This document shows, piece after piece, positions 29,635 to 56,963 of a stretch of 64,000 bases of DNA. The DNA is taken from contig JBFLWU010000007.1 in the NCBI GenBank assembly GCA_040757625.1, forward strand, positions 66,163 to 130,162, written 5' to 3'. The position numbers were made by a program, and so were the translations under genes. Position 1 is the first letter of the stretch, and the number at the start of each line of letters is the position of its first letter. Below the pieces are notes generated by a model. The model was not told where the DNA came from, did not search any database, and saw only the letters and a list, made by a program, of their open reading frames with translations. The DNA comes from Thermodesulfobacteriota bacterium (GTDB taxonomy: Bacteria > Desulfobacterota > Desulfobacteria > Desulfobacterales > JARGFK01).

Positions 29635-30405
29635 ATGCCGCCGAAATATCTTGCACCGTCCGTAACCAAAGCGTTTCAGATTTTAAAACTGGTGACCAAA
29701 TCAGACCGGGGATTGAAAATCACCGACCTGTCCAAAGCGCTGGGAATCGGCAAAAGCACCGTTCATGGCATCACCGCCGCCCTTGAAGAGCTGGGCGCCA
29801 TCCTGCGCGACCCTGTCAGCAAACGGTATCGCCCGGGACTTACCCTTCTGGAACTGGGCAAATCGGCCCATTCCCAGTTCGATTTGAAAGATCTGGCCCG
29901 GCCGGTAATGGAAGACCTGATGGAAAACGCCCAGGAGTCTGTCTTCCTGGGGGTGCTCAACGGGGAGCACATCACGATCCTGGATATCGTCGAATCCCGC
30001 AACGACCTGAAAATCACTTCCCCGGTGGGTACCGCCCTTCCGCTGATGGCCGGCGCAGCCGGAAAAGTTTTTCTGTCGGAAATGAACGCGGCGCAACGAT
30101 CCAGAATTATTGAATCCAGGGGGATTCCCCGATATACGGATAATACCGTCACCGATCCTCAGCAGTATCTTTCAGAAATTGAAAACGTTCGAAAGACGGG
30201 GTGGGCCACTGATTATGAAGAATATATACCCGGGGTCCGGGCCGTGGCCGCGCCGATCCGTTCAAGCCGTCATTTCAGCGCCGCCATCTGGGTGGTGGGG
30301 TTTAAAATGACCCTGGATGATGATAAAATGAAAATGCTGGCAGCGGCCACCACGGATGCGGCTGAACGCATCAGCCGCAAGTTCGAGGAACAGCAGCTTT
30401 TATGA
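29635..30405 (+). CDS. IclR-family transcriptional regulator
   Basis: N-terminal wHTH (SVTKAFQILKLV...LSKALGIGKSTVHGI) and a C-terminal IclR effector domain. Confidence 0.9.
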   Translation: MPPKYLAPSVTKAFQILKLVTKSDRGLKITDLSKALGIGKSTVHGITAALEELGAILRDPVSKRYRPGLTLLELGKSAHSQFDLKDLARPVMEDLMENAQESVFLGVLNGEHITILDIVESRNDLKITSPVGTALPLMAGAAGKVFLSEMNAAQRSRIIESRGIPRYTDNTVTDPQQYLSEIENVRKTGWATDYEEYIPGVRAVAAPIRSSRHFSAAIWVVGFKMTLDDDKMKMLAAATTDAAERISRKFEEQQLL

Positions 30406-30689
30406 AAATAAAAATCGAATCATTGGGTCTGCCGCTTCTTTCCAGACTGATCGGGAAAAAGACCGAAATCGATTTTCCCGGCAAAACGGTCGCGGACCTT
30501 GTCGCCCATCTGGTGAAACGCCATGGCCAAGAGATGCAAAAGGCGCTCCTGGATAAAGACGGCAGGCTGGATCTGACCATTCAGGTCATGATGAATGATG
30601 AGGGAATTCTACACCGGGAACAGTATCCAAAGCGGATTCTGAAAGACGGCGACAAGGTGATATTCATGATTTTGGTCGGCGGGGGCTAA
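30402..30689 (+). CDS. MoaD/ThiS-family ubiquitin-like sulfur-carrier protein
   Basis: 95 aa ending in ...ILVGGG (C-terminal Gly-Gly). Its start overlaps the iclR stop (ATGA). Confidence 0.72.
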   Translation: MKIKIESLGLPLLSRLIGKKTEIDFPGKTVADLVAHLVKRHGQEMQKALLDKDGRLDLTIQVMMNDEGILHREQYPKRILKDGDKVIFMILVGGG

Positions 30690-31495
30690 TCCCCATAGGG
30701 AATGCTGGAACGCGTGTGTACCTTTAAATCCCTGACCCCCTGAATCCCTTTCACCGTTGCAAGGATCTTCCGCACCAGGGTTTCCTCCTGAGATTCCGGA
30801 ACCGTGGTTGCGATATGAACAATGCCGTCTTTAGCAGCCACTTCTATATCGGGCTTCAGGTCTACCAGCAACGCCTTGACCTCGGCGGACAAGACCAGAT
30901 CATCCATCCCTTTCTGCGATTCAGGGGTTGTTTGAAAATCTTTCAGGCCGACGGTATTGCAGATGATTTCCGCTGCATCGTCAACGGAAATTTTCTTGAT
31001 ATGAATGACCAGGTCATACAGGCGCGGATCCCCGGTATCAATCCCGTAAAGGTGTAGGCTCCACCTCCTTCTTTCCTCGTCGTCAAGTTCAAGCATCCGC
31101 CGGGCCTCTTTTTCGGAAATGCCGTGACGCTCCTTTTCGAGTTTGACGCGATCTTCCATTTCAGCAAGGATTCTCACCTTAAGAACGTGAGAAACGCCCT
31201 TGAGAAAAAAATGCCCGGCAAGACCGTGATAGACGACACGATCCTTTTGGAATTGTTGCAGCAGGGCCTTCTGGATATATGCCACATATTTTTCTTTCCG
31301 GTATCCGAAGCGATCTAAAATCGACGGCGCATCGTGAATGGCCCGCACCAGCTTGATCTCCGGTATATTAAAGTCTTTGGAGGCTTCCACCAGTATGTCA
31401 CGGGCAATGCACGCGTAGCCCAGTCTTTTGGCAACCTTTTCAGCCACTTCTTTTCCGCGGCTGTACGACCCCCTGGAGATGGTAACAATCGACAT
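30686..31495 (-). CDS. cytidylate-kinase-like family protein with a BON-like C-terminal domain (paralog 1)
   Basis: MSIVTISRGSYSRGKEVAEKVAKRLGY. It is roughly half identical by eye to the product of 37628-38428. Confidence 0.65.
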   Translation of the reverse strand: MSIVTISRGSYSRGKEVAEKVAKRLGYACIARDILVEASKDFNIPEIKLVRAIHDAPSILDRFGYRKEKYVAYIQKALLQQFQKDRVVYHGLAGHFFLKGVSHVLKVRILAEMEDRVKLEKERHGISEKEARRMLELDDEERRRWSLHLYGIDTGDPRLYDLVIHIKKISVDDAAEIICNTVGLKDFQTTPESQKGMDDLVLSAEVKALLVDLKPDIEVAAKDGIVHIATTVPESQEETLVRKILATVKGIQGVRDLKVHTRSSIPYGD

Positions 31496-31773
31496 GGTGT
31501 CCCCCTGTAATAATTTTAGTCCCTTTACCCCAATCGAGCGAAAGCCCTGGGTGCCCAGCTTCAAGGCGTCCGAGGGCGAAGCCGTAGTATACTACTGCGA
31601 GTCCTCGGCAACGCAGAAGATGGGCGCCCAGGACTTTCCCAAAGGGTAAACAAAATGGAGACTTTTCTTAAAATTATATCGCTTTGAAAATAGCATGATG
31701 AGATCCGTTCAAATAGCCTAATAATATTTATTTGTTAAAAAGGTCCTCTATTTTGTTTACGCTCATTTGGGGT

Positions 31774-37627: not shown

Positions 37628-38428
37628 TTACGTCTCAAAAGGAACCACACTCACCCTCACCTCTCTTATTCCATCAACAGCTTTCAAGGCTTGTTTGATC
37701 TCGGCCCCGGCCTTCTCTTCCAGAGAGAGAGCCGTTTCAATTCTCACGAGAACAACCGCGTTCTGGCAACTGACCTGCGATGAAGGGTACCGTTCAATGA
37801 TGGCTGCCTTGGCAGAGGCCGCCACACTGAGGTCTTCCATTTTCTGCTGCGATTCGGGTGTCGTCTGAAAACGTTTCAGGCTGACCTTGTGACAAATAAT
37901 ATCTACGGCATCCTCCAGGGTCAGCTGGCCGATGTTGATGACCATGTCGTAGAGGCTGGGATCGGATGTTTCGATTCCGTAGAGCTGCTGGCTCCACTTT
38001 CGGCGCTGCTCATCTATCTTGTGAATATATTTTGCCGCTTCATCCCTTGAAAACTTGTTCCGTTTCATGACGATCTTGATGCGCTCCGCCAGGGACGCTA
38101 TGATCCTTACTTTGAGGACATGGGAAACATCCTGAACGAAAAAATGCCCGGCAAATCCATGATAGACGACATTGTCTTTCTTTAAATTTTTTAAAACGGC
38201 CGCCTGGATGTACGCGATATATTTTTCTTTTCTAAAAAGGATGTTGTCCAGAAAAGTGGGAGAGTCATAGATGGCATGAAACAGCTTTATTTCAGGAATA
38301 TTGAAATCTTTGGATGCTTCAATCAGAATCTCCCTGGAGATGCAATCATAGCCAAGTCTCTCGGCTACGTTTTCAGCGATTTCTTTTCCATGGCTATATG
38401 AACCGCGTGATATCGTAATGACCGCCAT
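37628..38428 (-). CDS. cytidylate-kinase-like family protein with a BON-like C-terminal domain (paralog 2)
   Basis: MAVITISRGSYSHGKEIAENVAERLGY, collinear with 30686-31495. Confidence 0.65.
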   Translation of the reverse strand: MAVITISRGSYSHGKEIAENVAERLGYDCISREILIEASKDFNIPEIKLFHAIYDSPTFLDNILFRKEKYIAYIQAAVLKNLKKDNVVYHGFAGHFFVQDVSHVLKVRIIASLAERIKIVMKRNKFSRDEAAKYIHKIDEQRRKWSQQLYGIETSDPSLYDMVINIGQLTLEDAVDIICHKVSLKRFQTTPESQQKMEDLSVAASAKAAIIERYPSSQVSCQNAVVLVRIETALSLEEKAGAEIKQALKAVDGIREVRVSVVPFET

Positions 38429-38661: not shown

Positions 38662-39852
38662 CTAACCGATTTTCAATACCAGTCCGGCGGCCGTATCGCC
38701 GGCCGCACAACCGCCCAAGAGCAGGTAGCCGCCCCCGGCCATGGCGGTCTCTTCAATCCCCTCGATCAGCAGGCGCCCGGCTGTCGGCGCCTGGGGATGC
38801 CCAAAAATCAGGGAGCTGCCGTAATTGTTGAAGCCGTTGACATCGATGGCCATCTGCTTGGCCATGTAGATGTCATTGGCCGCAAAGGGGTTGTGGGTTT
38901 TGATGGTCTTAACATCCTTTACGGTGATGCCGGCCTTGTCCAGCGCCATCTGCGCCGCCGGAACCACCGCCATGGCCATGAACCCTTTTTTGGTGCGGGC
39001 ATATCCGAAAGATATGATCTGAACCTCAATCTTGGGATCGGTGCTCAGCTCCCGGGCTTTTTCCCGGGTGGTGACCACCATGCCGCAGTTGCCGTCGGCC
39101 GGATGGGTCTGTGAACCGAAGGTATGGACACCCTCAGGCAGGACGGGCCTTAGCCCGGCCAGGCCTTCGGCGGTAGTAGGCATAACACCTTCGTCATCTT
39201 CCACCAGTTTGACTTCCTTTTTGGAAATCCTGACCTCCGCCGGAAACAGATAGCGTTTCTTGAAGGCCTTGTCGTCGGCGAAAGCGTCCATGTACTGCTC
39301 ATAGCGTCGGAGTGTAACGGCGTCGCATTCCTGCCGGGTGATTCCCGACTCTTTGGCCACGTTTTCCGCGGTTTGAATCATTGCGTTTTTAGCCCAGGGG
39401 TCCTGGTTGAAGTTGTCCATGAGCCAGTTTTCGGAAATGACTTCGCCCCCCGGTCCGTTGGGATTGGGCCATATCGCGTGGGGACCGTTGGAGCAGCGGT
39501 CGGTCATCAGGCAGAAGGCCTTCCCGTAAAGACCGGTCTCGACACCCATCGCCGCCTGGAAAATACCGGTGGTGGAAGTGGTGCAGGCCTGGCTCAGGAG
39601 TACCCCGGGTATGCCTGTCGCGCCCATTAGGGCCGCCGCCCAGGGACCGCCGTAAAATCCATGCTTCTGGTGTATCGTGATTCCCAGAATGAGATAATCG
39701 AACATCTTGGGATCCCACTTCTTGTGCGCAAACCATCGCTTGGAGGTGTTTGCACCCAGCTCGATAGAGTTTTCGTTTGCCATGGTCCCCTGCCATCTGG
39801 AAAAGGGAGTGCTGTAATAGCCCCGGTACGGTATGAACGCTTTTGTCAACAT
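38662..39852 (-). CDS. thiolase-family protein (acetyl-CoA acyltransferase-like)
   Basis: Active-site contexts LSQACTTSTTG, GHPQAPTG and GGCAAGD. The ATG at 39852 begins MLTKAFIPYRG. Confidence 0.8.
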   Translation of the reverse strand: MLTKAFIPYRGYYSTPFSRWQGTMANENSIELGANTSKRWFAHKKWDPKMFDYLILGITIHQKHGFYGGPWAAALMGATGIPGVLLSQACTTSTTGIFQAAMGVETGLYGKAFCLMTDRCSNGPHAIWPNPNGPGGEVISENWLMDNFNQDPWAKNAMIQTAENVAKESGITRQECDAVTLRRYEQYMDAFADDKAFKKRYLFPAEVRISKKEVKLVEDDEGVMPTTAEGLAGLRPVLPEGVHTFGSQTHPADGNCGMVVTTREKARELSTDPKIEVQIISFGYARTKKGFMAMAVVPAAQMALDKAGITVKDVKTIKTHNPFAANDIYMAKQMAIDVNGFNNYGSSLIFGHPQAPTAGRLLIEGIEETAMAGGGYLLLGGCAAGDTAAGLVLKIG

Positions 39853-40013
39853 GATGTTCTCCTCTCTCCGAAATAGAATCAAGTCATTCAGTGCTTCTCG
39901 CAAATATTTCGAAAATAGAATCCAAGGATTCGGGGGGCAAGGGTTCGGCTACCCCAATTTTCATTATTACACTTACCCCCTTAAACCCCGGACCCTTTGA
40001 ATCCTATTGGCTA

Positions 40014-41597
40014 TCAACAGGCATCGCTCCAGCGGCCGTACTTATCCCGCAGGATGCGGTGCAGAATTTTCCCGGTGGGGGTCCGGGGCATATCCGCATC
40101 TTTGATAAACTCTATGGATTTAGGCCGTTTGAAACCGGCCAGTTCGCCCTTGCAGAAAATCATGATCTCATTTTTCAGATCTTCAGTGGGCTCAAATCCC
40201 TCGTGCAGCACCACAACCGCTTTAATGGATTCCCCCCACTTCTCATCCGGAACGCCGATCACGGCGATATCCTTGATGGCCCTGTGGCAGCCGATGGAGC
40301 ATTCGACTTCCGAGGGATAGACGTTTTCGCCGCCGGTGATGATCATGTTGGCCTTTCGGTCCACCAGCACGTAATACCCGTCCGCATCCCGCCGGGCCAT
40401 ATCGCCCGCCGAGGACCAGCCCCCCTCAAAGGCGGCCTTTGTTTTTTCCGGTTCTTTCAGATATTCCTTGAACAGCATGGGCGTCCGGTAGAAAAGTTCG
40501 CCCACCTCGCCGTCCGGGACCTCTTGCCGGTTTTCATCCAGGAGTTTGATCCGGTCGGTGCCGAAAATTTCTCGGCCGATGGAACCCAGTTTCTTAAACT
40601 GGTCCTCGGGCCTGAGCAGGGTCACCAGTCCGCCTTCTGTGCTGCCGTAAGCTTCCCAGAGCTCGGCGTTTTTAAAGTACGCCATGATGGCCAGCTTTAA
40701 ATCTTTGCGGGCCGGGGCGGAAGAAATCAGCAGTTGGCGGATGGAAGAAACATCGATGTTTTTTTTAACCTTATCCGGCAGGGCCAGCAGCATGATATAA
40801 TGGGTCGGAACCAGGGAGGTAAAGGTGATCTTGTATCGATCAATGGTCCGCAGCAGGTCTTCGGGATCGAAACTCACCATGTTGTAAACAAACACCGGGG
40901 CTGTTACCAGGGTGTAGGGAAACGAATAGAAAATGGAGTTGACGTGGCACATGGGCATCACCAGCATGACCTTGTCCGTGGGCCGGACCCCCATGTTGAT
41001 GTTGTTGAGAACGTACTCGGCGTGATAGCTTTCATGGGTGCGCACCACCCCCTTGGGCCGGCCGGTTGTCCCTGACGTGTACATGATCGTCCAGCTGTCG
41101 CCGCCGTCGACCATGGTATCCGGTTCCTCCGGCGATGATTTTTTCAGCCACTCTTCATACCCCACATAGCCTTCCGGTACCGGGCCGTCTCCCAGATAGA
41201 TGTAGCTGCCCCGGGAAACTGGAAGTTTTTCTCTGATGCCATCGACCAGTTCCACGAAAGGTTTTTCTACGATAAAGGCCTTGCACTCTGAATGGTTGAG
41301 AATATATTGAATATCCGGTCCGGTCAGCCGGAACATGACGGGAACGACAATCTGGCCGCCCTTGGCGCAGCCGGCATAGATGTCCATCCACTCGCCCCGG
41401 TTATAGGCGATGACCGCAACCGGATCCCGGTAGCCGGCACCCAGATTCCTGAGTCCGTTGGCTAGGCGGCAGGCTCTTTCGTTCCACTCCCGAAAGGTAT
41501 ACTCCCTGAACTTGTCCTGCCACCCCAGTTTGTCGGGGTAGTTCAACGCATTCATCTTGAGGACTGTTCCCGCATGCATCCATCTGCTCAGCGCCAT
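40014..41597 (-). CDS. AMP-forming acyl-CoA synthetase/ligase
   Basis: AMP-binding motif YTSGTTGRPKGV, and the GDMARRDADGYYVLVDRK and PRTPTGKI motifs. Confidence 0.9.
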   Translation of the reverse strand: MALSRWMHAGTVLKMNALNYPDKLGWQDKFREYTFREWNERACRLANGLRNLGAGYRDPVAVIAYNRGEWMDIYAGCAKGGQIVVPVMFRLTGPDIQYILNHSECKAFIVEKPFVELVDGIREKLPVSRGSYIYLGDGPVPEGYVGYEEWLKKSSPEEPDTMVDGGDSWTIMYTSGTTGRPKGVVRTHESYHAEYVLNNINMGVRPTDKVMLVMPMCHVNSIFYSFPYTLVTAPVFVYNMVSFDPEDLLRTIDRYKITFTSLVPTHYIMLLALPDKVKKNIDVSSIRQLLISSAPARKDLKLAIMAYFKNAELWEAYGSTEGGLVTLLRPEDQFKKLGSIGREIFGTDRIKLLDENRQEVPDGEVGELFYRTPMLFKEYLKEPEKTKAAFEGGWSSAGDMARRDADGYYVLVDRKANMIITGGENVYPSEVECSIGCHRAIKDIAVIGVPDEKWGESIKAVVVLHEGFEPTEDLKNEIMIFCKGELAGFKRPKSIEFIKDADMPRTPTGKILHRILRDKYGRWSDAC

Positions 41598-41705
41598 TGC
41601 ATTGCTCCTTTAAATTCCTGAATCCTGCATAAAATTGTCGAGAATCGGATCACCATGGCGGCCCTGTTGATATTAACTTATCCCTTGTTGTCAACCCAAA
41701 AAGGG

Positions 41706-42485
41706 TTAGGCGCCCATCGCAAAAAGAGCCGCGCCCACAGCACCGGTGAACTGGGGATATTCCGGCACTTGTACCGTGCGGTTTAAGGCCTCTTCGAGCA
41801 TGGTTACCATATACGGATTGTGGGCAACCACGCCGCCGGTCATAACCACGTGACCGGCCAGTGTGTCCATTTCCATGATTCGCTTGATGACCGAAGCGAA
41901 AAGGCCTTTGACAATATCCGGCACTTTTTTCCCCAGCCTGATTTTTTCCAGCACCTCGGTTGCGGTGAAAACCGTACAGTAGCTCCCCAGTTCGACCATC
42001 CGGGTGGATTCCCTGGCCAGGACGTCCATATCCTCCAGGGGGATATCCAGCCGCAGGGACATCTCCTCCAAAAAGGCGCCGGTGCCGGCGGCACACTTGC
42101 GATTCATCTTGAAATTCAGGCGGCGTCCCCTATCGTCAAGCCGGATGATCTTGTTATCCTGTCCACCGATATCGATGATGGTGATGTCCATGGGAAAATA
42201 GTGAAAACACCCTTTGGCATGGCAGCTGATTTCAGTCTTGGTATCCCGCGTGAGGTCGACATTCCTGCGGCCGTATCCGGTGGCGACCGCGGCGCCGATA
42301 TCCCCGACCGCATGCCCTGCCATCTCCAAAGCCTCCCGCAGACAGTACTGGGCCGTTGCCGCAAAATCCGTACCGGATCTTGCCACGCTGCGGCCAATGA
42401 TGTTTCTGCCGGCATCCAGAACGGTCACCTTGGTGCGCGAAGCCCCCACGTCAATTCCAGCAAAAACTTGCTGCCGGCTCGTCAT
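41706..42485 (-). CDS. BcrAD/BadFG/HgdC-type ATPase (activase of 2-hydroxyacyl-CoA dehydratase-family enzymes)
   Basis: GIDVGASRTKV, DIGGQDNK and a Cys-containing helix region. The ATG directly abuts the stop of the upstream HGD-family gene. Confidence 0.9.
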   Translation of the reverse strand: MTSRQQVFAGIDVGASRTKVTVLDAGRNIIGRSVARSGTDFAATAQYCLREALEMAGHAVGDIGAAVATGYGRRNVDLTRDTKTEISCHAKGCFHYFPMDITIIDIGGQDNKIIRLDDRGRRLNFKMNRKCAAGTGAFLEEMSLRLDIPLEDMDVLARESTRMVELGSYCTVFTATEVLEKIRLGKKVPDIVKGLFASVIKRIMEMDTLAGHVVMTGGVVAHNPYMVTMLEEALNRTVQVPEYPQFTGAVGAALFAMGA

Positions 42486-43730
42486 TTATTTCAAATCCTC
42501 CAGCTGCTCAATGAACGCTTCAATATTGGTGCGAGTCTGTTCCTCCGAATAGCAGCGCAGATCATTCAGATCGCCGTTGATGGTCAGTGTCGGAATGTTC
42601 AGCTCCCGGCCGAGTCTGTCCGGCATCCCGTAGCGGTTGTTGGAGTTGTTGGGGCAGGTCTTGGCGTCATGAAAAACGATGCCGTCAAAGCGATACAACT
42701 CGAAGCACTTGCGAATGTACGCTTCTTTATAGGTTTCATCCCGAACGATAAAAAGTTCGGTGTAAGCCGATGCCATGCTTTCAAAGGGCGTCTCCGGGTC
42801 GAGTTGATCAAAGATCCAGCTGTTGCAATAGGTCGATGCCACCACGCTGGTATTCAGGGCTGCAAACTGATCGGACAGCGATCTTAATTTCCCCCAGATC
42901 GGCATCCCTTCCCAATAGAGCCGGTGCCTTTCCCCTTCAACCGCGGCAATTTTATGTTTAACCCGGTCATTGAGTTCGCTTAAAAGGGTTTCATAATAAT
43001 CGACGCCTGCGGTTGTTCCCCGGGCAACGACCGCAGGTCCCATGTGAATGGTTGCATCAAAGAACGTCCAGGGCGTTGGCACCGCCGCGGCAGATTCCAA
43101 ACAGGAGCGCCACAACTGGGATGTCCGGCGTGAAAGACGGATGCTTTCACGAAAACGTTCCCTGTCAAATTTCTGCCCGCTGATTTTTTCCAGCACCGGC
43201 ACCATGTCCTGTATCTGCCGGGCGATATCTCTGACCTGATATTCGCGGATCGCCTGAATGCCCCGATGGGTATGAATGCCGATGACCGGAGCCCTGAACT
43301 CCCGGGCATACCAGGAGAACCAGTCCTGCACATCCCGGCATTGATTGGTGTTGAATACCAGTACATCCGGCCGGGGGACCGTATCAATGCCGTAGGCCTT
43401 GGTCAGCGGTGTTTTCTTTTGAAGGAAGGCGCCGATATCGCTGGTAAGATAGGAACAAATATCCGGCGAATAACCGGCGGCATTGGCGTAAGGAATCAGG
43501 TCGGCGGCCATCCGGCTGGCCCCCAGCATGGCGCCGTGATTTTCGGGGAAATATACCAGAAACCCCATTCCCCGCAAAAGTTCGGCAGGCCCCACGCTGG
43601 TGCACCAGGCGATCTTTCGAGATCCGGTCTTGGAGGCTTGGTCGAGTTCGTAAAAATGATCGGCCATCACTTTTTTTAAAACCGGTGCGGCTTTAAATTC
43701 CTTACGGACATTCTCCGTTTGCAATGACAT
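42486..43730 (-). CDS. 2-hydroxyacyl-CoA dehydratase (HGD-D) family protein, single subunit
   Basis: About 414 aa with family-typical Cys contexts (IAWCTS, PDICSY, DAKTCPNN). No second HGD-type subunit is present in the operon. The start is uncertain (43730 or 43832). Confidence 0.75.
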   Translation of the reverse strand: MSLQTENVRKEFKAAPVLKKVMADHFYELDQASKTGSRKIAWCTSVGPAELLRGMGFLVYFPENHGAMLGASRMAADLIPYANAAGYSPDICSYLTSDIGAFLQKKTPLTKAYGIDTVPRPDVLVFNTNQCRDVQDWFSWYAREFRAPVIGIHTHRGIQAIREYQVRDIARQIQDMVPVLEKISGQKFDRERFRESIRLSRRTSQLWRSCLESAAAVPTPWTFFDATIHMGPAVVARGTTAGVDYYETLLSELNDRVKHKIAAVEGERHRLYWEGMPIWGKLRSLSDQFAALNTSVVASTYCNSWIFDQLDPETPFESMASAYTELFIVRDETYKEAYIRKCFELYRFDGIVFHDAKTCPNNSNNRYGMPDRLGRELNIPTLTINGDLNDLRCYSEEQTRTNIEAFIEQLEDLK

Positions 43731-43882
43731 CAGCACCTGTCCTGTTCTGTCTTTTAGCCCGTTGGTGAAACAAACATGTATCCGATTGCCAGCCCCGCCA
43801 ACGGCTGGATGCGAAAGTACGTTGGCAGGCACCGGGAAAGCCGCAGGCGGGGCGGCTTTAGACGCAGTTTTACAATAACCTG

Positions 43883-44827
43883 TTAGGGCTCAAGGGCCTT
43901 CACAAGGGCCTTGAAGGTATTATTGTAAGGGGTGTCGATTCCGGCCTGTGCGCCGTATTCAACAAATTTCCCGTTAATGAAATCGATTTCGGTGCGGCGC
44001 TTGTTTTCAATATCCATCAGCATGGAAGGCTTATGATTGCCCGCGCTCTTCATGTACCCCATGCAGTAGGGATAAAAATCCCATCCCAGATTGATTTCAT
44101 TGGCCCGGGCCACTTTCACGCATTCCTTGACAAGGGCGTCGATAATTCCGAATACGATCGGATCTCCCATGGCCTGGGCCATCGTCATGCCTGTAACCGC
44201 ACAGACCGGATTCATGCAGGCGTTCATGATGGACTTGCGCCAGACCATTGATACGATTTGATCGGTATGTTGTGTCGCCAAGCCGCACCGGGTAAGGGCC
44301 CCGGCAATGGCAACGGCGGCGTCGGAAGTTTCCGGATCCAGCTCCTGGATATAATGGGGAGGATGATGAAACGGCATGTGCACATGCCCCGGCGCTGTCA
44401 GTCCGCATCCATAATTGACGACGGCGCGTAGAACCGGTTTTTTACCGAGAGTCTGAGCGACGGCAAGTTCCGTATCGATCCCGTTCTGCCAGCTGACGAC
44501 ATACATGCCCTCACGGTAGAAACCCTCTATGGCTGAAGCGATCAACGGAATAGCGTTTGCCTTAACCGTCAGGAAGATGACATCCGGCGGGTCGTCGCCG
44601 AGGTCGTCCACGGCGTGACGTGTTTTTGCAACCGGTTGTCGGATATTTTCAGCACCGTCAATAATGATCCCCGGATTCACCGCCGGGGCGATCAATTCCG
44701 GTATCACGTCACAGAGGGTAACCTCATACCCCCCCTTCGACAGAAAGGCTGCAACGATACACCCCACCGGCCCCGCCCCCACAACCGCAATTTTCCGGGG
44801 ACAAAATTCAGATTGACTTGCCATCAA
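43883..44827 (-). CDS. ketopantoate reductase (PanE/ApbA) family 2-oxoacid reductase
   Basis: KIAVVGAGPVGCIVAAFL Rossmann N-terminus and a PanE-like C-terminal domain. Confidence 0.82.
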   Translation of the reverse strand: MMASQSEFCPRKIAVVGAGPVGCIVAAFLSKGGYEVTLCDVIPELIAPAVNPGIIIDGAENIRQPVAKTRHAVDDLGDDPPDVIFLTVKANAIPLIASAIEGFYREGMYVVSWQNGIDTELAVAQTLGKKPVLRAVVNYGCGLTAPGHVHMPFHHPPHYIQELDPETSDAAVAIAGALTRCGLATQHTDQIVSMVWRKSIMNACMNPVCAVTGMTMAQAMGDPIVFGIIDALVKECVKVARANEINLGWDFYPYCMGYMKSAGNHKPSMLMDIENKRRTEIDFINGKFVEYGAQAGIDTPYNNTFKALVKALEP

Positions 44828-44919
44828 GACCCCCTTGTTGTTTAGGTATATGATCTATTGAAACCGTTGAGCTGTATTTATTGTAAGGCACGATCAAACC
44901 GGCGACTGACGCCGCTTTT

Positions 44920-45363
44920 TCAGCCGTTCGTTTCTAAAATGCCAAAAGCATTGGCGTCCAGAAGCTTGATGCCGTTTTTCTGCAATATCTTGATGGCCTT
45001 GTCGTTGTCGCTGAAGCGAAATATCATGACGGCCTTTCCGGCTGAAAACCCGACGAACGCATAGGTGTAAAGAACATTGACATGGGCATCCCGCAGCGGT
45101 TTGAGCATTGCCGCCAGGCTGCCGGGCTTATCTTCGACCTCGGCCGCGACCACTTCAGTAACCATCGCCGGCATCTGCATCTCCATGAGAATCCGCCGGC
45201 TGGTGGTAATGTCGGAGACCAGAAGCCGCAGCTGTCCGAATGCACCGGTGTCCACCAGGTTTAAAGCCCGCAGGTTGATACCGGCATCGCCCAGCGCCTT
45301 GGTAACTTCGTAAAGGCGTCCCGGTGAATTCTCAATTGAAATGGTAATCTGTTTTAATTTCAT
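44920..45363 (-). CDS. tandem ACT-domain protein
   Basis: Two ACT-like repeats (ITISIENSPGRLYEVTKALGDAGINL and AAEVEDKPGSLAAMLKPLRDAHVNV). Confidence 0.72.
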   Translation of the reverse strand: MKLKQITISIENSPGRLYEVTKALGDAGINLRALNLVDTGAFGQLRLLVSDITTSRRILMEMQMPAMVTEVVAAEVEDKPGSLAAMLKPLRDAHVNVLYTYAFVGFSAGKAVMIFRFSDNDKAIKILQKNGIKLLDANAFGILETNG

Positions 45364-45608
45364 GAACCCTCCACGCAGATCTGCTTAAATAAAATTCATC
45401 GTAATAATTGCAACACAAGTTTTTTCGAAATACGCTGTAAGATACTATAACAAGGGCCTGCCGGCATGATGTGCAATAGTTGTGATAAGTACATTAAATT
45501 AATGAAAAAATATAGTAAATCCCTGGCGATCCGTCAAGCAAAAAGGACAAAAGAAAAACCGCCCTCGGGGATACTCCCCGACCGGACCGGCGATTTTCGG
45601 CAAGGAAA

Positions 45609-48007: not shown

Positions 48008-48679
48008 TCAGCCCGTATGAACCAGCGTGCGGGGACCGGCTGCGGTTTCGGCGCTCCAGTCCTTGGGCTGCCTGATCTTGTGGTACTCGTCAAGCTTGCC
48101 GAGTCTGGAGAGCCGCTCGATAATCAGATACCAGGCGCAGTCCACTTCCCTTCCGATCACCGCGCTGATTTCGCATTTTCCGTTCAGGGTTCCGCCGCAG
48201 GGCCCGTTAAAAAGCCGCTTGGCACAGAGGGCCACCGGGCAGATTCCGCCGGTGTGCGTCAGGATGCAGTCCCCGCATCCTACGCACTTTTCATTCCATT
48301 CCCCCGGCCGGTCCAGTGCCCCCAGAAAGGTGGTATTCAAGGCCGGGATGACGGGCAGATCCTTATAAACAGCCGCCAGGGTCTGAACGCCGGCACCGCA
48401 GGCCAGCGACAAAATCGCGTCAGTATCGTTGGGTATCTCGAGAAAACTGGCAATCCAGTCCCGTTCGCACTGCCTTTCAATGGTAAGGACATCAAATGAT
48501 GGCGGGTTTTCCTTCCGGCTGAATTCCTGGTCCAGTGCTGCTGCAAGTCTGCGCGCTTCCTTATCGCCCCCGGTCAGACAAACGGTAACACAGGTGCCGC
48601 AGCCCACGACCAGAACCTTATGATATTCCGATACGGATGAGACGATTTCCTGCAATGGTTTTTGAGTGCCGACTATCAT
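48008..48679 (-). CDS. MetV-like Cys-rich protein (methylene-THF reductase C-terminal-domain family)
   Basis: VVGCGTCVTVC, CVGCGDCIL..TGGICP and NGPCGG motifs. No metF is adjacent. Confidence 0.65.
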   Translation of the reverse strand: MIVGTQKPLQEIVSSVSEYHKVLVVGCGTCVTVCLTGGDKEARRLAAALDQEFSRKENPPSFDVLTIERQCERDWIASFLEIPNDTDAILSLACGAGVQTLAAVYKDLPVIPALNTTFLGALDRPGEWNEKCVGCGDCILTHTGGICPVALCAKRLFNGPCGGTLNGKCEISAVIGREVDCAWYLIIERLSRLGKLDEYHKIRQPKDWSAETAAGPRTLVHTG

Positions 48680-49080
48680 TTTCCGTTACCCGTATGAAGT
48701 CCGCGCCCCTGGGCGATCCGCTTCCAGGTGTTTAAAGGAAATGACTTTTTATGTTCAGGGCATAAGGCCGCAACTTCCCTCTCCAGTTTCTCCGAAAGCG
48801 TTTTACCCACGCCGGTGGTATAAACCGGTTCGCCGCAGACCATGCAGTGAATGAGTTCCATCTCTATGACTTCATCCCAGCCGCCCCTTAAAAGCTGCTG
48901 AAAATCAATAGCCGCCTGAGGACAGATGCGCCAGCAGTTGCCGCAGCGGGCGCAAAGCGACAGGTTGTGGTAAATTTTACGGCTGGCGTCCTTGTCCATG
49001 TAATTGAGCGCGCCGGCCGGACAGTTCTGCACACAGGCCAGACAGCCGTTGCATTTTTCGTTTACCTTAAAAAAAGACAT
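48676..49080 (-). CDS. 2x[4Fe-4S] ferredoxin-domain protein with an extra Cys pair
   Basis: CNGCLACVQNCP and CARCGNCWRICP. There is a 4-nt overlap with the downstream gene. Confidence 0.7.
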   Translation of the reverse strand: MSFFKVNEKCNGCLACVQNCPAGALNYMDKDASRKIYHNLSLCARCGNCWRICPQAAIDFQQLLRGGWDEVIEMELIHCMVCGEPVYTTGVGKTLSEKLEREVAALCPEHKKSFPLNTWKRIAQGRGLHTGNGK

Positions 49081-49110
49081 ATTTTCAATCCTTTGAGGAT
49101 AATCCCTTTA

Positions 49111-49602
49111 TCAGAATACCATCAACCGCATGACGCTGGCTATTTTGGCGGCTGACTGAACCATCTGCGGCTTCTGGAGCATATGCGGCCCGTCAAACAC
49201 CAGCGCCCCGGCTTTACATACCCGTACGCATTCGGGCGAACCGCCGCACAGATCGCATTTAAACGATTTTCCCCGATCTTCGTCAAATCCCATCGCACCA
49301 AAGGGGCAGGCCGAGACGCACATGCGACATCCGACGCATTTCTGATGGGTGATCAGAACCCGTCCCAATTCATCATCCCGAAAAATCGCATTATTCGGGC
49401 ATGCCGCCAAACAGGGCGGATCATCACACTGCTGGCAGGTCATCGGCAGGAAAAAGGAGTCGTCGTTCGACTCTTTTATAACCCGGATACAGGACCGACC
49501 AGGGTTATTCAAGCCGGTTTGCTTCTTGGAGCAGGCGCTTTCACAGTCGCCGCAGCCATTACACTTTTCAGGGTGGATTACTAGGGTATTCGAACTTATC
49601 AT
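49111..49602 (-). CDS. 4x[4Fe-4S]-type ferredoxin, paralog of the AOR-linked subunit at 21009-21503
   Basis: PMTCQQCDDPPC and KCDLCGGSPECVRVC mirror PMTCQQCEDAPC and KCDLCGGDPQCARFC in the aor partner. Confidence 0.8.
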   Translation of the reverse strand: MISSNTLVIHPEKCNGCGDCESACSKKQTGLNNPGRSCIRVIKESNDDSFFLPMTCQQCDDPPCLAACPNNAIFRDDELGRVLITHQKCVGCRMCVSACPFGAMGFDEDRGKSFKCDLCGGSPECVRVCKAGALVFDGPHMLQKPQMVQSAAKIASVMRLMVF

Positions 49603-49790
49603 CCAGTCAACTCCAAATAATTTAAGGCATGGAATATTGTTCATAATAGAGAACTTTTTTTAAATTACTATAAATATTAAAACGCCATCCGTCAATAATT
49701 TTCTTTAAAATATAATAAAATTATTTATATTATTCTGATATAATAATATTTATTTAAGGCGCCCCGATGCATTTCTAATTTTTTAGTAAT

Positions 49791-52423: not shown

Positions 52424-53722
52424 TTAGCTACGTGTTTTCGAGTTTTTCGCCAGCGTCTCCTTCAAACGCAGACTGGACAGAAACGTGATGACGCCGCAGG
52501 CAAACAAGACCAGGAAGGCCTGGCGGTAGCCAGCCGGGGTAAAGGCATCGCCGGCGCGCCCCTGGCTTTCCAGCACATATCCCAAAACCGGTTGAAACAC
52601 CGCGCCGCCTGCAAAGGGGAAGAGGTTGACCAGACCGGTGGCGGTCCCGGCGATCTGCACCGGAAATAGCTCCTTGGAAATGGTGAAGGCCACCACCACA
52701 ACGGCGCTGGTGAAACATCCCATGACCAGGCACAGCACATATAAGCCCGCCAGAGGTATTTTATCGGTATAAAATGCCAGTACGGCCGAAATCATGAGCG
52801 TGATCACACCGGAAAGCACCATGACCGGTTTTCTGGCGTGAAAGATATGGTTGGAGAGGTGGCTTAAGATCGGACTTCCCACAATCATGCCGATTGCCAG
52901 CATGGAAAGAACCTGGCCGGCCTGGCTCTTGCTGAGCCCGTATATCTGCATCAGATACGGCCCTCCCCAAAGGCCCCCGAAGGAGAAAAAAATGGCGCAG
53001 TCAAAGAAAAACCAGCAAGCCACCGGCCAGAAAGACGGGGTGCTCAATACCTTGCGAACGCCCTCGATAGGGCCGATGGGAGCGGATGGGGCCCCTTGTT
53101 TTTCGGCGGCCGGCGAAAGCCAGCCGAAATCGGAGGGACGGTCCCGCACAAACATCCACACAAGAATCATTATCAGGAAGGTAAAACCACCCACCACCAG
53201 GAAAGACTTGCGCCAGCCGATAGCTGCGCTCATCATTGCCAGAGGTGTTGCGGCCGTTAAAGAACCGATGCCGCCCATGGCGATAAGGATGCCGGTCATG
53301 GTGGCAAATTCACGCACGCGAAACCATTCCGCCAGGACTTTCATGGTGGGGACAAACAACATGGCCACACCCAGCCCCACCAGCGCACGGCCGAAAATGG
53401 CCCAAGACACAGACGGAGCCAGCCCCAGAATGATTGACCCGACAAAGGCCACCCCGAAGAAAAGGGTGATGGTGTTACGCGGCCCCCATGAATCCGACAG
53501 CAGACCGGCCGGAAGCTGCATGACGGCGTAGGGATAGAAATAGGCTGCGGCCAGCAGGCCTGTCAGGGCCCCGCCGGCCTTCAGGTCCTGCATCATGTCC
53601 ACCGCAACCACCGCCGGGCAGAGCCGGTGAAAGTAAACCAGTATGTACCCCAATGCCAGTATCCAGAAGATAATCCAGCGGTAACGCAGCGCTTTATCCA
53701 TCGTGTCTGCGGAAGTCGTCAT
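52424..53722 (-). CDS. MFS transporter
   Basis: 12 predicted TM segments with an MFS loop motif (GLLSDSWGPRN). Confidence 0.9.
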   Translation of the reverse strand: MTTSADTMDKALRYRWIIFWILALGYILVYFHRLCPAVVAVDMMQDLKAGGALTGLLAAAYFYPYAVMQLPAGLLSDSWGPRNTITLFFGVAFVGSIILGLAPSVSWAIFGRALVGLGVAMLFVPTMKVLAEWFRVREFATMTGILIAMGGIGSLTAATPLAMMSAAIGWRKSFLVVGGFTFLIMILVWMFVRDRPSDFGWLSPAAEKQGAPSAPIGPIEGVRKVLSTPSFWPVACWFFFDCAIFFSFGGLWGGPYLMQIYGLSKSQAGQVLSMLAIGMIVGSPILSHLSNHIFHARKPVMVLSGVITLMISAVLAFYTDKIPLAGLYVLCLVMGCFTSAVVVVAFTISKELFPVQIAGTATGLVNLFPFAGGAVFQPVLGYVLESQGRAGDAFTPAGYRQAFLVLFACGVITFLSSLRLKETLAKNSKTRS

Positions 53723-53966: not shown

Positions 53967-55262
53967 CTATTTCACAAATCCCATGACGCGCGGCAGCCAC
54001 AGGACCGCATCCGGCATGTAGGTCATAAAGAAGAGGACCGCCAGTTGAATAACCAGAAATGGAATAACGGATTTGGTGACGTAAATGAGATCCTTGTTGG
54101 CGATAGCGCCGGTTATGTAGAGACTGACCCCCATGGGCGGCGTGCAGTATCCAATCGCCAGATTGACCGTCAGAATCAATCCGAAATGAAGCCAGTTGAC
54201 GCCAAAGGCGTCCAGCATCGGCAAAAACACCGGTCCCAGGATCATGGTGGCGGAAATAATATCCATGAACATCCCTACAATCAGGAGCAGGATGTTGATG
54301 GCCAGCAGGAATACGACCGGAGACTGAATCGCCGAAAGGACCGTTTCGGTGATTTTGCCGGGAATATTTTCCAGGGTCAACAACCGGCCGAAGCACGTGG
54401 CGCCCGCCACGATGACAAGAAGGGTTGCGGAGGTAACCGCTGAGCTCACGGTGATCCGCTTCACCTGGCTCAGTTTCATGGACTTGTGAATAAAAAGCTC
54501 AACGATAAAAGCATAAACGCAGGCAACCACCGCAGCCTCGTTGGCGGTAAATGCGCCGGTAAAAATCCCGCCGAAAATAATCGCAGGGAGCATCAGGGAC
54601 CAGAAGCCTTCTTTGAAAACCGCCACGATCTCATTGATTTTCGGAATCGGCTTGCGGACGAGTTTCTCGTTGGTGCGGAAAACGAAATAAGTATAAATGC
54701 AAGTCCCGATGATAATGAGAATACCGGGCAAGAAACCCGTCAGAAACAACCCCTCCAGCGATACATTGCTGATCATGCTGTAAAGGATCATGCCGATACT
54801 GGGGGGGATAATCACCCCGAGGTTGGGCGACGTGGTCATCAGGCCGATGGTGTATTTCTGGGGATAACCGTTCTCGATCAGGGCCGGTATCATGAAGCCG
54901 CCCAAGGCCACCACCGTTGCCACCGTGGAGCCCGAAATGGCCCCGAACAGACCGCACGCCAAGACACCGGCCATGCCGAGCCCGCCCGGCAGCCAGCTTA
55001 CCAGCACATTGGCCACTTTGATCAGTTTTTCAACAATTGATCCGGCCGTCATGATATTGCCGCACAAGATAAAAAAGAGAACCACCACCAGTGCGAAATT
55101 ATCCATGCTGCGAAACAGGCTCTGGGCCAGCAGGAGCAGCGGCAGGTCGGTAAAAAAGATGAACCCCAGAACGGCCGTAAAAAACAGGCACATGAAGACG
55201 GGAACATAGCTTGCCATGCATCCCAGCAAAATCAGCATGATAATAATATGGCTTGTTTCCAA
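53967..55262 (-). CDS. TRAP transporter large permease (DctM family)
   Basis: 431 aa polytopic protein downstream of DctQ-like and DctP-like genes. Confidence 0.9.
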   Translation of the reverse strand: METSHIIIMLILLGCMASYVPVFMCLFFTAVLGFIFFTDLPLLLLAQSLFRSMDNFALVVVLFFILCGNIMTAGSIVEKLIKVANVLVSWLPGGLGMAGVLACGLFGAISGSTVATVVALGGFMIPALIENGYPQKYTIGLMTTSPNLGVIIPPSIGMILYSMISNVSLEGLFLTGFLPGILIIIGTCIYTYFVFRTNEKLVRKPIPKINEIVAVFKEGFWSLMLPAIIFGGIFTGAFTANEAAVVACVYAFIVELFIHKSMKLSQVKRITVSSAVTSATLLVIVAGATCFGRLLTLENIPGKITETVLSAIQSPVVFLLAINILLLIVGMFMDIISATMILGPVFLPMLDAFGVNWLHFGLILTVNLAIGYCTPPMGVSLYITGAIANKDLIYVTKSVIPFLVIQLAVLFFMTYMPDAVLWLPRVMGFVK

Positions 55263-55304
55263 AATCGAATCTCTTTTAAGAACTCAGCAGGAGCATCAAC
55301 GGGT

Positions 55305-55826
55305 TTATTTCTGATCGTTCGCGCCGTGCGCCTTGGTGAAATCTTCGTAAATAACCTGAATAGTCCGAATGAACATCATCACCCCCATCAGGGGCAGAAT
55401 GGCATAAAGATAGACCAGTGGAATTTGCATGATGATGGTCTTTTGATAGGTTCGAACCTGCAGCAGCGCCATCAGCCAGCCGTAGTAGATCATCATTGCT
55501 GAAAAAATCAGCGTCACCATGTTGCTGAAATAGTTGAGAGGAACCTTTATTCGGGGTACCAGCTGCACCAGGGCGTCGATTTTGATCATGGAGCGATTTT
55601 TGACGGCGGCACTGCACCCGATAAATGTGGTGTAGATGATAACTTCCCGGACCAGTTCCTCCGACCATGCCAGCGAGTAATTGAAGCCATAGCGCAAAAC
55701 CACGTTAAAAAACAGTGATATCAGCGCAATCAGCACGGAGATGAACAGGGTCCATTCTTCAAAAAACGTCAGGACCTTATCAAAAAAATTCAGAATTTTA
55801 CGAAACATGAACTGCCTCGGCGGCAT
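55305..55826 (-). CDS. TRAP transporter small permease (DctQ family)
   Basis: 173 aa with 4 TM segments, between the DctP-like and DctM-like genes. Confidence 0.85.
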   Translation of the reverse strand: MPPRQFMFRKILNFFDKVLTFFEEWTLFISVLIALISLFFNVVLRYGFNYSLAWSEELVREVIIYTTFIGCSAAVKNRSMIKIDALVQLVPRIKVPLNYFSNMVTLIFSAMMIYYGWLMALLQVRTYQKTIIMQIPLVYLYAILPLMGVMMFIRTIQVIYEDFTKAHGANDQK

Positions 55827-55880
55827 AAGGTATAAGCAAAGGGGGTTTGCCGAACCCCCCTTTGCTTATAATAGCAGAAT

Positions 55881-56963
55881 TTACGGTTTATAACCGATAA
55901 AATCCTCGACTTCCTTCAGGAAATCTTTGGGCCGGTATGTGTCACCCTTATAGAGCTTGTTGATTTCGCCGGCATATTTTTTATGGACCGCATCGCCTTT
56001 GCGTCTCAGCAGGTCCATGGCGGAATCCGACAGCTTAAAGAATTGAATCCCGTCGGCCTTGGCCTTGGCGATTTCATCAATTTCCTGCTGCTTGACTTCT
56101 TCACGAATCTTGGCGCAGACATCATGGACCGTTTCCACAAAGGTTTTCTGCAGATCAGGCGGCAGGCTTTTAAACCAAGCCTTATTGAAAATCCAGATAA
56201 ACAGGCCCTGAGCGTAGTTTATCTGGGTAAAATATTTGGCGACTTCGAATTTTTTGGTGATATTGCAAACCGACGGAGTGTGGTCCAGGCCGGTGATGAC
56301 TCCCTGTTTAAGCGCCACCGGCACATCCGGCCACGGCATCACCACCGGATTAAAGCCCCACTCCTTGTAGAGCAGCTGATTGACGGCCGCCTCGGCGATG
56401 CGGAACTTGACTTTGTTGGCATCTGCCAGGCTTTTGACAGGGGTAGTGGTTGCCCAGCCGTAGTTTCCATACCCGGTAATATCGAGTCCGATAATTCCCT
56501 GATGGTCCATTGCCATCATAAAATGATCGAACAATTTCTTATTGGCGACAAATTTATCCAGTTTTTCAAAAGAGTCGATCAGGAACGGCAGGTTGACCAC
56601 CCCGAATCGGGGCCCGAGATTCGTTGCTGCAACCGAGCTGGTTCCCATCCCCTGGATGGCGCCCATCTGAAGCTGGTTGAGAACTTCCACTTCGCCGCCG
56701 AGCATGGAAAAGGGCTTGTAATCGAGATACATCTGGCCTTTGGTTCGTTTCCACAACTCGTCGCGGATCGCAAAGCCGGTGTATACCCCCCTGAGCACCG
56801 GATGAGACACATTGGAAACGATGAATTTGTATTTGGCGCCGGCAGGATCGAAATTGGGTTTCCAGGCGTCCAGTGATGGCCCTCCGGCCAGAACCGGACT
56901 GATAAAAAGTCCGAGGCAGAACATACAAATTACTGTTAGAAAAACGCTTTTTCTAAAGATCAT
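55881..56963 (-). CDS. TRAP transporter substrate-binding protein (DctP family)
   Basis: Signal peptide plus a ~330 aa periplasmic domain. It is the first gene of the TRAP operon. Confidence 0.88.
   Translation of the reverse strand: MIFRKSVFLTVICMFCLGLFISPVLAGGPSLDAWKPNFDPAGAKYKFIVSNVSHPVLRGVYTGFAIRDELWKRTKGQMYLDYKPFSMLGGEVEVLNQLQMGAIQGMGTSSVAATNLGPRFGVVNLPFLIDSFEKLDKFVANKKLFDHFMMAMDHQGIIGLDITGYGNYGWATTTPVKSLADANKVKFRIAEAAVNQLLYKEWGFNPVVMPWPDVPVALKQGVITGLDHTPSVCNITKKFEVAKYFTQINYAQGLFIWIFNKAWFKSLPPDLQKTFVETVHDVCAKIREEVKQQEIDEIAKAKADGIQFFKLSDSAMDLLRRKGDAVHKKYAGEINKLYKGDTYRPKDFLKEVEDFIGYKP

Follow-up and report, generated by a model that had tools for sequence, protein, structure and literature searches.

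Can a catalytic-type subunit of the HGD family, to which the 2-hydroxyacyl-coenzyme A (CoA) dehydratases (HADs) and class I benzoyl-CoA reductases (BCRs) belong, work with an activating ATPase and no second, paralogous subunit? The question was raised by a gene cluster of a Thermodesulfobacteriota bacterium (Desulfobacterales; GenBank assembly GCA_040757625.1), located in a 64,000-nucleotide stretch of contig JBFLWU010000007.1 (positions 66,163 to 130,162) which is referred to here as the window. Based on the open reading frame (ORF) list and Pfam domains, six co-directional ORFs occupied the minus strand at 45363..38662 of this 64-kb window. They included a lone catalytic-type HGD-D gene (42486..43730, minus strand, 414 aa; PF06050, 215.6 bits) and the gene of an archerase-type ATPase, the activase (41706..42485, minus strand, 259 aa; BcrAD_BadFG, PF01869, 166.6 bits). 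The sequence evidence was considered to favor, with a probability of about 0.5, a homodimeric, ATP-activated 2-hydroxyacyl-CoA dehydratase without beta subunit, which would feed beta-oxidation and thiolysis. As such, it would be an oxygen-sensitive iron-sulfur protein with radical chemistry.

A preliminary description of the locus had reported one HGD-type gene and one activase gene clustered with PanE, ligase, thiolase and ACT genes, and all six ORFs were recovered with the corresponding Pfam domains. The protein lengths of 414 and 259 aa and the stop/start abutment were confirmed as well by the starts of the orthologues and by the junction sequence, in which the TAA stop of the HGD gene directly abuts the ATG of the activase gene ('...ttg aaa taa atg acg...'). 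The HGD ORF is extendable upstream to a GTG at 43832 (448 aa), and the ATG at 43730 (414 aa) was adopted as the start because the orthologues are 413-417 aa long and begin at ATG.

The HGD protein resembles catalytic subunits

The HGD protein was compared with solved structures and curated families. In the single-sequence search of the PDB, the best matches were the HadB alpha subunit (1.3e-45), MbdO (5e-32) and BzdO (7e-23), and a profile of 25 orthologues ranked them identically, with HadB first (1e-57), then MbdO and BzdO; the identity to HadB and MbdO was 27-28%. The best NCBIfam match was the HadB model NF052455 (201.3 bits against a cut-off of 750), and the scores of TIGR02260 (BcrB; 130.8 against 486.55 bits), TIGR03191 (BzdO; 81.8 against 448.6 bits) and NF040772, the model of the double-cubane cluster protein (DCCP; 53.5 against 350 bits, C-terminal half only), were also below the cut-offs, so that the protein was placed in no curated equivalog. 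The AlphaFold2 monomer was of moderate confidence only (predicted local distance difference test, pLDDT, 67.7; predicted template modelling score, pTM, 0.72), with low values around the cluster loops. Foldseek template modelling (TM) scores of this model were 0.71-0.74 for HadB, 0.70-0.72 for MbdO, 0.66-0.67 for BzdO, 0.62 for DCCP and 0.53-0.59 for beta-type subunits.

The Cys residues of the protein are located at positions 43, 92, 131, 210, 302, 342, 359 and 393. C92, C131 and C359 aligned with Cys95, Cys128 and Cys380 of BzdO, the ligands of its catalytic [4Fe-4S]-OH2 cluster, and HadB coordinates its cluster likewise (PMC11971306); these three residues are predicted to be [4Fe-4S] ligands that leave one Fe free. 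The seven-Cys motif of DCCP, CX19CX18-19CX29CX166-170CX32-34CX32C (PMC7317905), was absent, as the Cys spacing of the query did not fit. No match to the DCCP structure was obtained with the single sequence at E values up to 1, and the 25-orthologue profile matched it weakly (E ~1e-3) over the C-terminal half only. The DCCP alternative raised in the preliminary description was discarded as an identity of the protein on the missing motif, the low NF040772 score and the weak partial alignment, and the size pair of ~46 and 28 kDa, which had been taken as a hint to it, is common to the whole family and not diagnostic. In a review which assigns catalytic subunits to 'cluster III' and DCCP to 'cluster IV' (PMC7317905), the HGD protein belongs by its sequence to 'cluster III', not 'cluster IV'. 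Both its sequence and its predicted fold mark it as a catalytic (alpha/BcrB-type) subunit.

The activase matched TIGR00241 with 207.5 bits (cut-off 125), and its best PDB matches were HadI (174 bits, 2.3e-50), MbdQ (173 bits), HgdC (162 bits) and the DCCP reductase, DCCP-R (125 bits). Both Cys motifs of the bridging cluster, KCAAGTG and SYCTVF, were kept. On this basis the activase is predicted to be a homodimeric ATPase bridged by a [4Fe-4S] cluster, and the homodimeric activators HadI and HgdC are its nearest counterparts. Class I BCRs contain two different ATPase subunits (PMC11971306), whereas a single ATPase gene was found here, as in HADs and DCCP.

Absence of a beta subunit at the orthologous loci

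When the HGD protein and the activase were searched by phmmer against the complete set of window ORFs with a minimum length of 80 aa, only the self-matches were returned, and neither an HGD paralogue nor a second activase was detected in the window. The search was extended to 80 loci retained from a pattern scan, whose HGD proteins were 63-79% identical to the query, giving 81 loci with that of the query. The activase gene adjoined the HGD gene in 70 of the 81. All unassigned ORFs of 280-520 aa within ~7 kb of the HGD gene were covered by 91 representatives, which were submitted to Pfam together with 14 other large window ORFs and five spiked-in HGD-D proteins that served as controls, namely the query itself, the alpha subunits of two outgroups and two genuine beta subunits. 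Among these 110 proteins exactly five PF06050 matches were obtained, as many as the controls, and no second HGD-D gene was revealed; both beta controls were also detected by Pfam in the precomputed annotations. This test superseded an earlier Pfam run without controls, which was unable to reveal single-member families. An hhalign test for hidden beta subunits (234 neighbour and 42 window ORFs against the orthologue profile) was negative throughout, and was discarded as insensitive because genuine beta subunits reached only ~5% probability. Thus, one HGD gene per locus was observed in all 81 orthologous loci, and the second subunit gene beside orthologues, which according to the preliminary description would have spoken against a lone enzyme, was not encountered there.

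More distant members of the clade (P0122, P0124, P0128, P0132 and P0136) were also lone. Differently, all four outgroup relatives sampled (P0140, P0148, P0142 and P0145, 33-37% identical) had an HGD-D gene of 366-382 aa immediately upstream. One of these loci (L095:1006-5867; P0142, 34% identical) presented the order activase-beta-alpha followed by an AMP-forming ligase gene, so the use of a ligase rather than a CoA-transferase, which had been proposed as a special trait of the window cluster, is shared with a canonical alpha+beta locus and was given up as such.

The beta partners of two outgroup alpha subunits were inspected for their Cys residues. The one at L091:4863-5999 carried Cys 35, 74, 101, 241, 295 and 329 and was BzdN-like, near the double-cubane pattern, and the one at L093:4904-6004 carried four Cys only. 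The type of beta cluster may thus differ among the heteromeric relatives, as far as these two sequences tell.

A canonical heterodimeric dehydratase with its beta subunit encoded elsewhere in the genome would also explain a lone gene. Further HGD-D paralogues, belonging to BCR-like enzymes, are certainly present in some host lineages, and the scans were confined to the loci rather than whole genomes. However, no beta gene occurred within ~7 kb in 81 loci spanning several phyla, the beta gene was adjacent in four of four sampled outgroup loci and in the characterised systems, the lone status coincided with the clade-specific residue signature described below, and at locus L086 a PanE-HGD fusion gene was followed directly by its activase gene with no beta gene. 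A remote beta subunit was considered very improbable.

A widespread clade with its own residue signature

Orthologues at 73-90% identity were abundant in Desulfobacterota, including Desulfatiglans anilini. Relatives were found in at least 580 species by the pattern scan (one genome per species). Most of these hosts were Desulfobacterales, Desulfatiglandales (including NaphS2), Desulfomonilaceae and Syntrophales, and other hosts were Aminicenantes, Zixibacteria, Spirochaetia, Elusimicrobia and Bacteroidia. When 1.84 billion cluster representatives were searched in full with HMMER, 1662 relatives were obtained.

To define the clade, 102 full-length representatives were aligned with HadB and MbdO. 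E63, C92, C131 and C359 were almost universal, and the combination of C43, G47 and C302 occurred only in sequences with ~39% identity or more to the query; the corresponding residues were Ser/Phe/Pro in HadB and Cys/Gly/Leu in MbdO. In 201 family members, C92, C131, C302 and C359 were each conserved in 201/201, C43 in 198, C393 in 192 and C210 in 157, and G47, E63 and F327 were invariant; C393 and C210 are counted as additional residues specific to the clade. In a neighbour-joining tree the signature bearers (groups of 13 and 9 tips) were split from 80 other tips including HadB and MbdO; the tree was crude, without bootstrap and with a midpoint rooting disturbed by long-branch sequences, and was used only for this bipartition. 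The gene context tracked the clade boundary, the HGD gene being lone inside the signature group and accompanied by an adjacent beta gene outside it (four outgroups sampled). The phylogeny and Cys-pattern comparison suggested in the preliminary description hence placed the protein outside the characterised heteromeric clades, in a separate group with 27-28% identity to HadB and MbdO.

The positions of the signature residues were further compared with the double-cubane ([8Fe-9S]) sites of DCCP and BzdN. In a global profile alignment, Cys35, Cys74, Cys101 and Cys329 of the BzdN-like beta subunit paired with C43, C92, C131 and C359 of the query, and HMMER aligned C302 with Cys309 of DCCP, so that five of the six ligand positions of the DCCP and BzdN double cubane are occupied by Cys in the clade. 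The remaining one (C341 of DCCP) fell near L326/F327. C43 and C302 occupied two of the three distal-ligand positions, with the third ligand missing, and G47 replaced the Trp (BzdO) or Phe (HadB) which fills the space of the lost sub-cluster. Since Cys was kept at five of six positions, a non-canonical extra Fe-S site is conceivable; the clade Cys residues and G47 might bind an extra Fe-S center, form a redox or proton-relay pair, or enlarge the pocket.

These residues bear on another explanation, in which the protein would be a DCCP-like homodimer with a double-cubane or other extra Fe-S site that passes ATP-energised electrons to a small or unconventional substrate. It agrees with the presence of one HGD-type gene and one reductase gene, as in DCCP/DCCP-R (PMC7317905), with the Cys at five of six double-cubane positions, four of them matching the BzdN-like beta subunit and C302 matching DCCP, with G47 in place of a bulky residue, and with the complete conservation of C302. 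On the other side, the seven-Cys motif is absent, the sixth ligand position is L326/F327 with F327 invariant, the NF040772 score is far below its cut-off and limited to the C-terminal half, the PDB DCCP was matched at ~1e-3 compared with 1e-57 for HadB, and the conserved neighbours are enzymes of CoA esters. This explanation was judged quite improbable.

A related proposal is that the lone clade is an evolutionary and mechanistic intermediate between the homodimeric DCCPs and the heterodimeric HADs and BCRs. It would be a self-sufficient alpha2 radical enzyme, each subunit of which keeps part of an ancestral double-cubane site and uses C43 and C302 (with C393 in the core family) as a second Fe-S center or a redox-active Cys pair replacing the electron storage and recycling of the beta subunit, still acting on a CoA thioester. 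We regard this proposal as speculative and rather unlikely.

Partner genes and fusions point to 2-hydroxy acids

Four further genes complete the cluster, all on the minus strand. The first encodes a tandem ACT-domain protein (44920..45363, 147 aa; ACT_8 6.5e-19, ACT 8.7e-12), which may act as a small-molecule sensor. It is followed by a PanE/ApbA-family NAD(P)H-dependent 2-oxo-acid reductase (43883..44827, 314 aa; ApbA and ApbA_C), for which TIGR00745 gave 195 bits (cut-off 141) and all equivalog models were below their cut-offs. Downstream of the activase are an AMP-forming acyl-CoA ligase (40014..41597, 527 aa; AMP-binding and AMP-binding_C), which was assigned to no equivalog and most resembled ligases of medium/long-chain and aryl acids, and a divergent thiolase (38662..39855, 397 aa from ATG; Thiolase_N/C). 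The mechanical ORF of the thiolase starts with TTG at 39903, and the ATG at 39855 is the likelier start. Its TIGR01930 score was 165 bits, below the cut-off of 240, and the alignment to PDB 8jg2 indicated that the catalytic Cys/Asn/His/Cys positions and the GHP and C-terminal Cys motifs are kept. Substrate clues from solved structures were uninformative, as the ligase was nearest to FadD5, FadD13, feruloyl-CoA and anthranilate-CoA ligases, the thiolase to generic acetoacetyl-CoA thiolases and the PanE protein to generic ketopantoate reductase.

The recurrence of these partners was evaluated at 62 loci with at least 3 kb available upstream and 52 loci with at least 5.5 kb downstream. PanE was upstream in 9/62 loci, six of which had the ACT protein too, and PanE also neighboured relatives of 39% and 48% identity. 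A GlcD/YdiJ-like dehydrogenase was upstream of the HGD gene in 22/62 loci; this protein of ~866 aa (FAD_binding_4, FAD-oxidase_C, Fer4 and CCG) has the layout of the D-2-hydroxyglutarate dehydrogenase YdiJ. An AMP-forming ligase was downstream of the activase in 21/52 loci, with a thiolase after the ligase in 16/52. In the group of 63-66% identity, an ADP-forming acyl-CoA synthetase and a sodium:solute symporter were encoded downstream instead, with PanE and thiolase often within 5 kb. An acyl-CoA dehydrogenase gene adjoined P0124. Malonyl-CoA decarboxylase (MCD_N and MCD; L001/L002:5352-6734, also L007, L011, L013, L026 and L036; Desulfatiglandales and Desulfobacterales) was encoded directly upstream of the GlcD-like dehydrogenase in nine of the loci listed, the D. 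anilini locus accounting for three, and no such gene lies next to the cluster in the window. A P5CR-like gene upstream in Desulfomonilaceae was rejected as a partner, being a bona fide proC (TIGR00112, 251 bits against 197) and probably an unrelated neighbour.

Additionally, three fusion proteins were identified in which a PanE/ApbA N-terminal half is joined to an HGD-D C-terminal half: P0122 (728 aa; L086:8001-10187), P0130 and P0143 (L094:4477-6783). P0122 keeps the cluster Cys, its activase gene lies directly downstream, no beta gene is present at locus L086, and the activase gene is followed by a Fer2/FAD_binding_5/Mo-hydroxylase operon with XdhC. In P0130 and P0143 C92, C131 and C359 were replaced by Ser, Gly and Ser/Thr, so these two proteins would be unable to bind the cluster. 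As far as sequences can tell, the fusions are the strongest link of the HGD protein to 2-hydroxy acids. Together with the non-homologous replacement of PanE by the GlcD/YdiJ-like protein in many loci, they lend independent support to the route from a 2-oxo acid that the preliminary description had put forward.

The neighbourhood also bears on the possibility of an ATP-consuming reductase, in which the lone subunit would, like class I BCRs, take stoichiometric electrons from the ATPase and reduce a CoA thioester supplied by the ligase, for instance an aryl-CoA, a dienoyl-CoA or another acyl-CoA that is hard to reduce. The HGD protein matches MbdO and BzdO strongly, MbdO also has Cys at the C43 position, the activase is as near to MbdQ as to HadI, many host lineages degrade aromatics (Desulfatiglans anilini, NaphS2), and the Fer2/FAD/Mo hydroxylase at the fusion locus is of 4-hydroxybenzoyl-CoA-reductase-type architecture. 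However, class I BCRs combine two different ATPases with a BzdN/BcrC-type subunit (in BzdN, the [8Fe-9S] cluster is regarded as a store of two electrons; PMC11971306), and one ATPase gene and no such subunit were found here. The scores of TIGR02260 (131 against 487 bits) and TIGR03191 (82 against 449 bits) were low, and the position of BzdO His131 (query 134) was Val in 200 of 201 family members, which is weakly diagnostic since MbdO is also without this His. Finally, the recurrent 2-hydroxy-acid dehydrogenase partners, including the fusions, fit a dehydratase substrate and not an aromatic one. Reductase chemistry was therefore considered unlikely.

Proposed pathway

The HGD-activase pair is repeatedly accompanied by 2-hydroxy-acid dehydrogenases of two non-homologous types, by acid-thiol ligases of two sorts and by a thiolase, and for this reason a sequence from 2-oxo/2-hydroxy acid to CoA ester to enoyl-CoA fits the loci. 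The mechanism was drawn by homology with HadB and HadI as described (PMC7317905, PMC11971306). Firstly, the PanE-type reductase would convert a 2-oxo acid to the (R)-2-hydroxy acid, and at other loci the GlcD/YdiJ-like flavo-iron-sulfur dehydrogenase would interconvert the same pair. Secondly, the AMP-forming ligase, or the ADP-forming acyl-CoA synthetase in distant members, would thioesterify the acid. Thirdly, the activase dimer would use ATP to transfer a single electron of low potential to the [4Fe-4S] cluster ligated by C92, C131 and C359. The thioester carbonyl of the substrate would then displace the water on the ligand-free Fe to form a ketyl radical, the 2-hydroxyl would leave, C3 would be deprotonated and the electron recycled, yielding (E)-2-enoyl-CoA. 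Housekeeping hydratase and dehydrogenase encoded elsewhere would act next, and the cluster thiolase would release acetyl-CoA and a shortened acyl-CoA. The cluster of the beta subunit is believed to store the recycled electron in heterodimeric HADs; without a beta subunit, this role would have to fall to the second copy in the homodimer or to the clade-specific Cys residues.

With regard to the substrate, 2-hydroxyglutarate, aryl-lactates, 2-hydroxyisocaproate, 2-hydroxybutyrate or 2-hydroxyadipate are candidates consistent with some of the contexts. As a candidate, 2-hydroxyglutarate would explain both the YdiJ-like dehydrogenase and the malonyl-CoA decarboxylase, with glutaconyl-CoA converted to 3-oxoglutaryl-CoA and this to malonyl-CoA and acetyl-CoA. 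An aryl-lactate route would yield benzoyl-CoA and matches one proposed on other grounds for a Desulfobacteraceae strain (PMC13416013). Branched-chain or short 2-hydroxy acids are equally possible.

Several points weigh against an alpha-only dehydratase. To our knowledge, every characterised HAD needs a beta subunit and an enzyme of alpha subunits alone is without precedent, also as regards electron storage and recycling and the docking site of the activator. The canonical dehydratase mechanism does not account for C43, G47 and C302, which match the cluster ligands in conservation, the confidence of the structural model is moderate, and a beta gene may lie outside the loci scanned. Neither PanE nor the GlcD-type flavo-iron-sulfur gene was adjacent in 31/62 loci, and no enoyl-CoA hydratase or 3-hydroxyacyl-CoA dehydrogenase is encoded in the cluster. 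Moreover, GlcD-type flavoenzymes normally oxidise 2-hydroxy acids, and therefore the flux at GlcD loci may not run from 2-oxo acid to enoyl-CoA.

Comparison with known systems

The system most similar to the window cluster is HadBC/HadI of Clostridioides difficile (PDB 3O3M, 4EHT). HadB was the best match in sequence (~27% identity) and fold, the same three Cys ligands plus the conserved Glu occur in both, the single-gene activator is closest to HadI, and both pathways, in the case of the window as proposed, set out from a 2-oxo acid, which is reduced to the D-2-hydroxy acid. Unlike it, the window cluster lacks a HadC-type beta subunit, scored 201 against 750 bits with NF052455, has the extra invariant C43 and C302 of its clade with G47 for Phe, and encodes a ligase where HadA is a CoA-transferase and a thiolase where an acyl-CoA dehydrogenase and electron-transferring flavoprotein are found.

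In the class I BCRs BzdNOPQ and MbdONQP (PDB 8S02, 9G87, 9GAI), BzdO and MbdO are homologous catalytic subunits with [4Fe-4S]-OH2 on the same three Cys; MbdQ is as near to the activase as HadI, and MbdO shares the Cys at the C43 position. In contrast to the window cluster, they possess a BzdN-type subunit (the [8Fe-9S] cluster being shown for BzdN), two ATPases and a stoichiometric use of ATP (PMC11971306); these extra genes are absent here, the equivalog scores are far below the cut-offs and BzdO His131 is replaced by Val.

DCCP/DCCP-R of Carboxydothermus hydrogenoformans (PDB 6ENO, 7YYL) and YjiM/YjiL of Escherichia coli likewise consist of one HGD-fold and one archerase gene, implying a homodimer, and the window enzyme has Cys at five of six ligand positions. 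The differences are the absent seven-Cys motif, the non-Cys sixth ligand position (L326/F327), the weak similarity and the CoA-ester gene context of the window protein.

The phenyllactate dehydratase FldABC/FldI, and the route from phenylpyruvate to benzoyl-CoA hypothesised for strain BzS1 (PMC13416013), resemble the proposed pathway in the order 2-oxo acid, 2-hydroxyacyl-CoA, enoyl-CoA and 3-oxoacyl-CoA thiolysis. Differently, FldBC is heteromeric and bound to a CoA-transferase, and nothing found here connects the window enzyme with aromatic substrates. The literature search yielded no description of an alpha-only HAD-type enzyme, apart from a brief mention, in the paper on the Desulfobacteraceae strain BzS1 (PMC13416013), of a 'singular' gene 30% identical to FldB; this gene probably belongs to the lone clade.

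Organization of the cluster and other genes of the window

The intergenic gaps in the cluster were 0 bp at the HGD/activase junction and 92-158 bp elsewhere. A promoter-like site, TTGACG-17-TATATT, was located 5' of the ACT gene (45509..45537, minus strand); it was the best match of the region in the consensus scan (10/12 positions), and is a pattern match only. Along the strand, the Usp gene is succeeded by a terminator-like hairpin (45543-45566), this promoter-like site and then the ACT gene. On these sequence features a single transcription unit is plausible. The Rfam scan of the cluster region for riboswitches or leader RNAs gave zero matches at E values up to 1.

None of the other window genes (sensor kinases, response regulators, TauE, Usp, rubrerythrin-like, GNAT, ferredoxins and TRAP) bore on the pathway. 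The genes at 37628-38428 and 30686-31564 (both minus strand), ~6 kb apart, encode paralogous Cytidylate_kin2 (PF13189) proteins, 266 and 292 aa long, and one of these genes lies directly downstream of the thiolase gene. Adjacent flavo-iron-sulfur oxidoreductases of 899 aa (Pyr_redox_2 and Fer4_20, GltD/NfnB type) and 576 aa (Pyr_redox_2 and a Fer4 dicluster) are encoded at 24695-29392 (minus strand), with an IclR regulator gene (29635-30405) adjoining the pair. At 48008-49644 (minus strand), the gene of a DUF5981 protein (methylene-tetrahydrofolate reductase C-terminal domain) precedes those of two small proteins resembling 4Fe-4S ferredoxins; the group may be part of a Wood-Ljungdahl-related electron-transfer module. 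TRAP transporter genes (DctM, 431 aa; a small ORF; DctP, 360 aa) at 53967-56963 (minus strand) and an MFS transporter gene at 52424-53722 were also present, with no link to the cluster established for either.

Significance

What is new in this locus is a catalytic-type subunit of the HAD/BCR family that apparently dispenses with its partner subunit and is conserved with its ATPase across hundreds of anaerobes. The mechanistic models of ketyl-radical dehydratases and of ATP-dependent aryl-CoA reductases all assume a catalytic subunit and a paralogous electron-relay subunit. An alpha-only enzyme, if true, would show whether docking of the activator and the storage and recycling of the electron require a beta subunit. 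A simpler two-gene system for structural and engineering work would also be gained, with use for acrylate and other enoates. Our reading would give a function to a highly conserved gene pair of at least 580 species, including sulfate reducers which dominate carbon turnover in marine sediments, and the identity of the substrate would add a missing route of 2-oxo/2-hydroxy acid or amino-acid catabolism in these hosts.

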